DNA from: a virus
Taxonomy: Duplodnaviria > Heunggongvirae > Uroviricota > Caudoviricetes
IMG/VR virus record: IMGVR_UViG_2531839374_000010
Span: 1-9,683 of that record
Strand: one strand, 5' to 3'
Length of the DNA: 9,683 nt
A program made the position numbers and the translations under genes. A model generated the notes under the pieces. The model saw only the letters and a list, made by a program, of their open reading frames with translations. It ran no database searches and was not told the DNA's origin. Shown here in pieces: positions 5,551 through 6,628 of the stretch; positions within the stretch are counted from its first letter, which is position 1, and every line of letters begins with the position of its first letter.

Positions 5551-5702
5551 AAAAAGGTGGCTATTCATCAGAACATTGTCGCCTTCATTAGGTTTATCTG
5601 TTGAAGATCTGTAAGCCGCTTATAAATAAGTAGATATAAGATATTAGGAAAAGAAGAAGGACGTTATAGTTTTATTTGTGATGTGCAAAGTATATTTGAA
5701 TA

Positions 5703-5721
5703 GAACCCGCCCAGCGGGTTC
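5703..5721 (-). terminator. GC-rich perfect hairpin (GAACCCGC-CCA-GCGGGTTC) 9 nt 3' of the cargo ORF; possible terminator or RNA-stability element
   Basis: 8-bp perfect stem standing out in AT-rich DNA. There is no clean U-tract on either strand, so confidence is low. Confidence 0.35.
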
Positions 5722-5730
5722 TAAAGTGTT

Positions 5731-6327
5731 TTAATGATTGTCGTGATAATTAATTGGCTCATCATTTTTTTGGTCTGGCATAGTTATGGACCACTTTATA
5801 TTCTTTAGGCTGTTATGTTTTTTATTGACCTTAAGCTCTCTCTTTGCTTCAGAGATAATATCGTCTAGTAATACTTTTAATTTATCAAGTCTTGACTTGT
5901 GGGCATCTATCAACTCTATACTATCAAACACCCATTGTATAAATAGATTTTCTTCATTTTCAATGAATGAACGGATTTTATCCCCACACTCTTCTGTTAA
6001 GAATAATGAAGATAGCTCACCTATTCTACTGAGTTTTTCAAGCTCATTAGAGAAAGATTTGCTAAGGATTTCATTTTCTTCTTTTGATTTGTAACTAAAG
6101 TAGGTTGGGAATTGTGAAGCGTGATGTAACTCATGTTTATACCAATAGTCAGCTGTGTTTTTTAGAAGATAAACACAGTCAACTAATTACGTATACAAAT
6201 CTATTCTTTTGTCCCACCATTTTTCTTTATAATAACGGCCGAGTGCATATCGCGCAGTTAAGTAAGCTGCGATTGAGCCTGTAACAAGTCCGATAATTAC
6301 CTTTGATATAAGGTCATGCCAATCCAT
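5731..6327 (-). pseudogene. AT-rich cargo ORF of 199 codons with one in-frame TAA at codon 47 (6187-6189); N-terminal transmembrane helix; candidate superinfection-exclusion or defence gene, function unknown
   Basis: ATG at 6327 with AGGA 9 nt upstream. The 46-aa N-terminus MDWHDLISKVIIGLVTGSIAAYLTARYALGRYYKEKWWDKRIDLYT is followed by TAA, then 151 stop-free codons in the same frame down to TAA at 5731-5733. There is no in-frame ATG/GTG/TTG for 85 codons after the internal stop. An 8-bp hairpin begins 8 nt after the internal stop. Confidence 0.55.
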
Positions 6328-6628
6328 TTTTATTTTTCCTACATTATGTTATATAATTGTTCATATCATACAATTGTTGAGTATAGATGTCTCGTTATTC
6401 ATCAACATTTACTCCTGTTAAATTAGGGGGAGTATGTATTAAAAATATTCATCTGGGTCGTCTAAATATTTTTGATAAACTAATAGCAATAACACTATCA
6501 GTATTGCCTGCCCTCACGTCGTTCTTGCTCTCGCGCGATTTTTAACTAAACACTAGCAGGATTTATCATGGTGCTACGCTACATTTACTTGTAGGGAGCT
6601 AAACAGATCATTGACGCTGAAAATATTC

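Follow-up and report, generated by a model that had tools for sequence, protein, structure and literature searches.

The stretch of viral DNA considered here, positions 1 to 9,683 of the IMG/VR record IMGVR_UViG_2531839374_000010 (9,683 nucleotides (nt), hereafter the window), carries an AT-rich cassette between the early genes and the repressor gene of a lambdoid prophage remnant. Judged by sequence, the cassette has the anatomy of a classical moron: on the minus strand it is made up of a promoter-like site, whose activity we infer, a single gene of 198 codons, and a terminator hairpin. The segment is no core gene but one among several cargoes that alternate in a variable slot, because relatives with the same flanks hold other genes there. 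The gene is dead in the window and intact elsewhere, and its product belongs to a widespread family of predicted membrane proteins. The joint reading, namely that this is a self-contained acquired moron in a variable slot and that the intact gene products act against superinfecting phages at the inner membrane, is one that we hold to be quite probable; the protective role taken by itself is put forward below with much more caution. What is new here are the exact boundaries of the segment, the replacement of one slot content by another, the portability of the unit, the predicted topology and fold of the protein, the breadth of its family, and the death of the gene in the window.

A preliminary description of this DNA had singled out an AT-rich island at 5575-6490, and the island is borne out by its guanine-plus-cytosine (GC) content, which is 0.322 against a mean of 0.483 (standard deviation 0.027, minimum 0.433) in the 262 windows of 916 nt that lie outside 5400-6700, about 6 standard deviations below the mean. 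In windows of 300 nt the GC content stays at 0.31-0.36 from about 5500 to 6600 and is at least 0.40 everywhere else. The check by GC and codon position that had been suggested at the time also shows a strong difference from the neighbouring genes. The open reading frame (ORF) is low at all three codon positions (GC1/2/3 of 0.42/0.28/0.31), the third-position value comparing with 0.42-0.53 in the neighbouring prophage genes. Under the codon preferences of the neighbours the ORF would be expected to have a GC content of 0.391, and 0.333 is observed; about half of the deficit comes from the amino-acid composition of a protein rich in Lys, Asn, Ile and Leu, and the rest from the choice of codons.

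Comparison with related prophages places the limits of the segment slightly outside those first proposed (Table 1). On the left, homology to the Escherichia coli TST3 prophage and to phage mEp390 stops at 5557 or 5553, and on the right homology to PhiR29_1, VG38-53E1 and SfIV resumes at 6623 or 6628 and runs on into cI. The segment is rare: full-length copies of positions 5560-6620, all at least 99% identical, were found in just 16 of 5426 complete E. coli genomes, and an identical copy of the locus is absent from these 5426 genomes, while the adjoining 6623-6850 are common to 1365 E. coli records. A search of plasmids returned no copy of the cassette, the single match being a weak one of 121 nt. 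The possibility entertained at the outset, that the segment might be a conserved core gene of all related phages, is contradicted by this rarity. The proposed site between prophage early genes and the repressor was correct, in that the slot lies between a yfdR-like gene and a cI-type repressor gene.

Relatives that lack the segment, as had been anticipated, share the repressor region and yfdR with the window and have other genes in the slot. In EC31, SfIV, PhiR29_1 and VG38 the slot is filled by yfdQ (DUF2303) and yfdP, in some cases together with an ORF on the other strand, and in the TST3 prophage by a BRCT-domain gene. Relative to its commonest relatives the cassette replaces yfdQ-yfdP and is not a simple insertion. 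Opposite-strand genes occupy the yfdP-to-cI gap in several related loci (L171:2756-3484, L172:2969-3484, L170:2584-3281, L179:3906-4787); the opposite-strand gap ORFs of relatives encode 242, 171, and 114 plus 144 residues without a Pfam or PADLOC family, and that of TST3 is the BRCT-domain protein. The slot genes of SfIV, PhiR29_1 and VG38 show no AT-richness (GC 0.43-0.44), and with the exception of DUF2303 for YfdQ no Pfam or PADLOC family was found among them. The yfdR/yfdP-to-cI gap of SfIV/PhiR29_1-like phages is a hot spot for cargo; the narrower label of a defence hot spot is not justified by the present evidence, because the alternative cargo is without such families, and is not AT-rich.

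Evidence that the cassette is portable as a unit comes from prophages of Raoultella, which have a different repressor (HTH_3+S24) and two different integrases, and in which the corresponding position, about 540 nt after cI, encodes a protein that is 73% identical. Nucleotide homology between the two (79%) extends from 119 nt upstream of the start to codon 168, that is window positions 6446-5824. It takes in the promoter block GAGACATCTA...AACAATTGTAT[G/A]ATAT, which is kept in the Raoultella cassette, where the -10 element is TATAAT. The hairpin core AACCCGC..GGCGGGTT is likewise kept there and is followed by a run of T residues; the T-tract is weak in the window. The stem of the hairpin in the window contains 6 G-C pairs and closes on a 3-nt loop, and the GC-rich hairpin first noticed past the stop codon at 5703-5721 is therefore real, with a perfect stem that reaches slightly further on both sides. 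The ratio of nonsynonymous to synonymous substitution rates (dN/dS) between the window and the Raoultella copy is 0.11, a value that speaks for purifying selection on the intact copies.

These observations bear out the initial suggestion of a horizontally acquired moron, which is supported by the composition of the segment, by the relatives that lack it, by its rarity, and by the Raoultella copy of promoter region, gene and hairpin together. Three features by which a moron is recognised are present, these being absence between the same flanks in relatives, a distinct base composition, and a terminator-like hairpin of its own; as to a promoter of its own, the promoter-like site is conserved in Raoultella but is a weak match to the consensus. 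A scan of the whole window against Rfam returned only a tRNA-Thr, with no RNA family in the cassette region.

Divergent from the promoter region of the cassette is a second ORF, of 52 codons (6387-6545, plus strand), whose product would be hydrophobic in its C-terminal half. As a partner gene it was set aside, the block conserved in Raoultella covering only its first 60 nt, and it is probably not a gene.

Table 1. Coordinates of the cassette, its parts, its flanks and the surrounding prophage genes in the window
Feature	Position	Strand	Remarks
AT-rich cassette (moron)	5558-6622		1065 bp, GC 0.337; limits from comparison with related prophages
Promoter-like site	6365-6393	minus	-35 GAGACA, 17-nt spacer, -10 TATGAT; 9/12 consensus matches
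Shine-Dalgarno-like AGGA	6337-6340	minus	10-13 nt upstream of ATG; kept in the Raoultella copy
Gene for a predicted single-pass membrane protein (phrog_17948)	5731-6327	minus	198 codons; pseudogene here
Inactivating TAA	6187-6189	minus	Gln47 CAA in intact alleles; G to A at 6189 on the plus strand
Residual ORF	6187-6327	minus	46 codons; predicted transmembrane helix and basic juxtamembrane motif RYALGRYYKEKWWDKR
Terminator-like G+C-rich hairpin	5701-5723	minus	8 nt past the stop; perfect 10-bp stem
Early-left leader module (left flank, outside the cassette)	5305-5557	minus	89% with TST3 prophage, 76% with mEp390
OL/pL-like region	6734-6797	minus	three 20-bp repeats, each with GGTACA; TTGACA-16-CACAAT site, 10/12 consensus matches
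Terminator-like hairpin	6806-6825	minus	directly after the repressor gene
Tyrosine integrase	1459-2621	minus	two overlapping ORFs, split by a 1-nt deletion near 2235
yfdR-like HD-domain 5'-deoxynucleotidase, left-hand early gene	4772-5308	minus	phrog_318, E = 1e-102
cI-type repressor, right-hand neighbour	6837-7511	minus	Peptidase_S24 / LexA family; Pfam PF00717, E = 9e-25
YdaS-type cro	7603-7802	plus	
CII/YmfL-like gene	7834-8403	plus	

In the window the gene has been lost. Its reading frame on the minus strand, from 6327 to 5731, is continuous apart from a single in-frame TAA, so that of the membrane-anchored ORF of the preliminary description the membrane-protein gene stands and its intactness does not, the frame ending after codon 46. 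The corresponding locus of ECONIH4 is 99.5% identical, has CAA at codon 47, and contains an intact annotated gene (WP_001764244.1). The window copy has two further changes, E133V, at a position that is invariant among close homologues, and Y195H, and is predicted to be non-functional. The 46-codon remnant keeps the start codon, the AGGA site and the promoter-like site. Among other IMG/VR contigs, one (L089) shares both the nonsense allele and the IS911-like junction with the window, four (L085-L088) have the gene intact, two of these also adjoining proA-thrW, and one (L110) shows an independent disruption by the insertion sequence (IS) IS1 at about codon 45; in this last contig an IS1-mediated deletion removes most of the cassette. 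The gene is thus a pseudogene here and has been lost twice independently, in IS-rich lineages, once through the TAA allele, shared with L089, and once through the IS1 event of L110.

The protein matches phrog_17948 over residues 1-185 (profile positions 1-185 of 185, E = 6.1e-95). When 1.84 billion representative proteins were searched with a profile, 369 clusters at 50% identity were recovered (E <= 1e-3), from many phyla and habitats, including metagenome-assembled genomes from soil, marine and sediment samples. Most members are 150-200 residues long and have in common an N-terminal hydrophobic helix, an interface motif of basic and aromatic residues, [RK][FY]xxE[KR]WW[ED][KR], a helical domain and a C-terminal AKKxLK; the nearly invariant residues are E35, W37, W38, A161 and L165, none of which looks catalytic. 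Hydropathy in the present protein peaks at 1.71 over residues 6-24 (family mean 2.0), and across the family lysine plus arginine residues number 0.26 before the helix and 4.0 in the 15 residues after it. Because the positive charges follow the helix, the protein is predicted to span the inner membrane once with the N-terminus out and the C-terminus in, so that a short acidic N-terminus would face outward and a four-helix bundle would lie in the cytoplasm. The AlphaFold2 model, made from an alignment of 70 sequences, has a predicted local distance difference test score (pLDDT) of 89.7; its first helix (residues 3-70) continues from the transmembrane helix and packs as a four-helix bundle with helices 82-104, 112-133 and 139-164, and the tail, rich in Lys and Asn, is modelled with low confidence.

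Searches for a name gave nothing. Against Pfam, NCBIfam and PADLOC, neither the protein nor 70 members of its family were assigned to any family, a sequence search of solved structures found no relative, and comparison of the fold returned only generic four-helix-bundle matches. The source names all read 'hypothetical protein', and no paper in the literature mentions WP_001764244, the CobraSix or OS31 homologues, or phrog_17948.

The genomic setting of the family was examined at 161 loci from species genomes and viral contigs. The median GC content of the family gene is 11.8 points below that of its flanks; it is lower by more than 5 points at 135 of the 161 loci and higher at 7. A terminator-like site follows 23% of family genes and 5% of neighbour genes. 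No conserved partner gene emerged from an all-against-all clustering of neighbours at 99 dereplicated loci, where no neighbour was shared by more than 8 loci, and Pfam scans of the -1 and +1 neighbours gave a heterogeneous picture. Family genes are found in a lambda-like prophage (L173) between an unannotated 89-residue gene and cIII, just upstream of the latter; at another site immediately behind a gene for an N peptide; and, in phages CobraSix and OS31, beside xis/int. In prophages of Tatumella, Enterobacter, Kluyvera and Leclercia (L017, L037, L052 and L076, at about 8000-8500) the gene lies in the head-gene cluster, with a DUF2213 gene on one side and on the other a gene of about 485 residues, presumed from its size and its place in the gene order, though not so annotated, to encode the portal; the cluster gives the family a second cargo slot, unrelated to the first. 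At chromosomal loci, immediate neighbours of family genes give strong PADLOC hits to BrxL, GajA, GajB, KwaB, TmtA and mad3. The family behaves as stand-alone accessory cargo, which is compatible with a role in defence and no proof of it.

The flanks of the cassette bear on how its gene might be transcribed. To the left, the leader module is found in TST3 and mEp390 as well, in both immediately ahead of the gene that comes first in the early-left set. It has a normal GC content and contains an inverted repeat (arms at 5466-5485 and 5531-5550, 20 nt, 95% complementary, with a 45-nt loop) that folds as RNA at -42.3 kcal/mol (z = -2.9), has no match in Rfam, and may serve the early-left operon as a leader, a processing site or an antitermination element. 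To the right, towards cI, lie tandem repeats that resemble a leftward operator and promoter (OL/pL) and overlap the TTGACA-16-CACAAT site; ECONIH4 has one repeat fewer. The hexamer GGTACA is overrepresented in the window (13 occurrences, 2.8 expected), with clusters in these repeats and in the cI-cro gap (7529-7595), and the same hexamer forms part of a palindrome, TTGTACC-GCTAA-GGTACAA, in that gap (window 7527-7595). The repeats and the palindrome are probably the OL and OR operators of the cI-type repressor. Read as OL/pL, the repeats at 6734-6797 place the cassette in the early-left leader, downstream of pL.

The function favoured for the intact copies is protection of the lysogen. These copies would be expressed from the prophage, and the protein, held at the cytoplasmic face of the inner membrane, would act against superinfecting phages by one of two routes: it might block the entry of the phage genome, or it might oligomerise, permeabilise the membrane and so bring about abortive infection. 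Protection at the inner face of the membrane is proposed by analogy, because rexAB, sieB, nun and bstA lie near the immunity or early-left region and SieA and PdpSau are membrane-anchored exclusion proteins, and it is offered tentatively, at somewhat less than an even chance. A claim for the family at large, which is found in prophages of many bacterial phyla and beside genes of the BREX, Gabija and Kiwa systems, namely that it is a new and widespread stand-alone anti-phage protein, borne on a portable AT-rich cassette of promoter, gene and terminator, with a bundle that senses or blocks the incoming phage, is made with about the same caution.

With regard to known systems, the closest likeness in architecture is to the morons of lambdoid phages (bor and lom of lambda; those of HK97), which like the cassette are extra genes at places where relatives have their genes adjacent or the space differently filled, and which have their own promoter-like site and terminator hairpin and a deviant base composition. 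The cassette differs from them in its place, the early-left leader beside the immunity region and not the late operon, and in being a pseudogene. SieB of lambda and P22 (PF14163), the product of an abortive-infection gene, is similar in size (184 against 198 residues), has, like the cassette protein, a hydrophobic N-terminal part by prediction, and is encoded at a comparable early-left location near N and cIII, the family member of L173 being just upstream of cIII. Lambda sieB, however, is on the strand opposite to pL transcription, whereas the cassette gene is co-oriented with pL. Homology to SieB was rejected: there was no match to PF14163, at E <= 1 for the protein or at E <= 0.01 for the 70 members, and hhalign gave a probability of 0.2% for the family profile against lambda SieB.

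In lambda the exclusion genes occupy the space between cI and OL and share a transcript with cI. This cI-adjacent spot for accessory, phage-excluding cargo, used by lambda rexA-rexB, HK022 nun and BTP1 bstA (the BstA family is described in PMC8585504), is shared by the cassette. The difference is that here a terminator and the OL-like repeats part cI from the cassette, and that there is neither sequence similarity to these genes nor a PADLOC match of any kind. Lactococcal Sie2009 is a membrane-anchored exclusion protein of a prophage. P22 SieA (PMC10883804) and Staphylococcus aureus PdpSau (PMC10127798) are likewise prophage-encoded, single-gene, membrane-anchored proteins that protect the lysogen. 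All three resemble the cassette protein in the architecture and setting proposed for it, with no detectable homology; their topology and domain folds may also differ from its own.

Other candidates were tried and set aside. Csx28/tm_HEPN, an accessory protein of type VI-B CRISPR systems, shares with the family an N-terminal transmembrane helix and a small helical cytoplasmic domain, at about 180 residues; the matches to it (E = 0.006-0.01 in 1-2 of the 70 members) are at chance level, the conserved Rx4-6H motif and a Cas13b context are absent, and Csx28 is not among the structural matches listed. An i-spanin (Rz-like), which would be N-in/C-out with a periplasmic coiled coil, was rejected on the positive charges after the helix and on the position of the gene beside the immunity region, far from holin and endolysin, and the membrane-bound nuclease SNIPE (PMC13190303) was set aside as unrelated. 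Against PADLOC-DB v2.0.0 (Rex, Abi, Gabija, BREX and others) the protein had no match at E <= 1, and the 70 members gave scattered matches at E = 0.0007-0.009, in 1-2 members each.

A number of points weigh against protection of the lysogen. No experiment and no homology, whether in Pfam, NCBIfam, PADLOC or structures, ties the family to any function. The promoter-like site agrees with the consensus at 9 of 12 positions, and the scan that found it returned 7 sites in total against 6.1 in shuffled sequence. The cassette lies downstream of the OL/pL-like site, and its transcription may be that of the early lytic phase and not of the lysogen. In several relatives the gene follows an early gene at 30-80 nt, which leaves no room for a promoter of its own, and across the family the upstream gaps are only slightly above those of the control (median 82 against 54 nt). 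Finally, defence genes make up a few percent of all family neighbours.

Several of these points are what would be expected under the principal rival explanation, in which the gene is an early lytic accessory gene transcribed from pL and its product a membrane-anchored factor for host takeover or timing, such as an inhibitor of division or transport or an anchor for replication or recombination complexes. The cassette is on the same strand as the early-left genes and downstream of the OL/pL-like repeats; the homologue in the lambda-like prophage, between the 89-residue gene and cIII, is preceded by a gap of only 31 nt, and those of CobraSix and OS31 stand within a string of early-left genes with gaps of 44-76 nt. 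A fixed early function is, however, a poor fit to a gene that is rare and dispensable in its phage group (the 16 E. coli genomes above), whose place in relatives is held by other cargo, and which elsewhere sits inside head-gene clusters or beside chromosomal defence genes. The conserved promoter-like block and terminator that the cassette has for itself, and the base composition, which throughout the family is far more AT-rich than the flanks, also count against it, and this explanation is considered unlikely, if the most serious of the rivals.

Known morons include genes for host traits, lambda bor and lom among them, and the moron architecture together with a membrane protein that has no enzymatic motif would suit a lysogenic-conversion gene unrelated to phages, one that alters envelope stress tolerance, colonisation or transport. 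Yet the spread of the family over many phyla and habitats argues against a host trait specific to one niche, most of the protein is expected from its predicted topology to lie in the cytoplasm and not at the exposed surface, and some of the neighbours of family genes are defence genes, so that such a role seems rather improbable.

Less probable by a wide margin of belief is a small membrane toxin or addiction module, similar to type I systems, in which the transmembrane segment would be the active part and even the 46-residue remnant might be active. It is true that residues 3-26 weakly resemble the Ldr toxin model (E = 0.27), that one family member of 70 matched the Fst model (E = 0.0097), and that the remnant has its translation and promoter-like signals. 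These E-values, however, are no better than chance given how many proteins were scanned, what is conserved (dN/dS 0.11) is the whole protein of 160-200 residues and not the helix alone, and no antisense RNA or antitoxin partner is conserved; membership among type I toxins (Ldr, Fst) was rejected on these weak matches and on the lack of any match in Rfam. That the AT-rich stretch is a non-coding regulatory or H-NS-bound spacer with an ORF by chance, as the stop codon in the window might suggest, is refuted by the alleles with an intact 198-codon frame, present in 16 E. coli genomes and also in several contigs of viral origin, the low dN/dS, the 369 family clusters and the confident structure model, and hardly deserves further weight.

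The prophage around the cassette is itself decaying. It is an SfIV/PhiR29_1-like lambdoid prophage integrated at thrW: proA (1-1254) and the tRNA-Thr(CGT) gene (1369-1444) precede the prophage remnant, which includes, among the genes of Table 1, an excisionase-like ORF and a DUF551 gene, both on the minus strand. In relatives the left-hand neighbour of the cassette is annotated as yfdR or as an HD family hydrolase, and the ECONIH4 counterpart of the repressor gene as a LexA family protein. The integrase region is, apart from its frameshift, 99.7% identical to the intact gene of ECONIH4, and with a split integrase the prophage can probably no longer be excised. Separating the excisionase-like ORF from the DUF551 gene is an IS3-family element (3052-4310), IS600-like and probably IS600 itself, with a 3-bp target duplication (ATA). 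A second IS3-family insertion (8443-9683), presumably IS911, truncates the prophage right after the CII/YmfL-like gene. The frameshifted integrase and the two insertions are the reason for regarding the prophage as decaying. The IS content, taken with the lack of an identical copy in the 5426 E. coli genomes, hints that the host may be Shigella-like.

For the window itself the cassette has little significance, being a dead relic in a prophage that IS elements are dismantling. Its wider value is that of a pointer, in that it draws attention to a precisely bounded, portable moron with an unannotated family of membrane proteins, and an intact allele such as WP_001764244.1 is an inexpensive, clearly defined candidate to put through a screen for anti-phage activity. 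The gap between yfdR and cI in SfIV/PhiR29_1-like phages, in turn, is worth mining for cargo.

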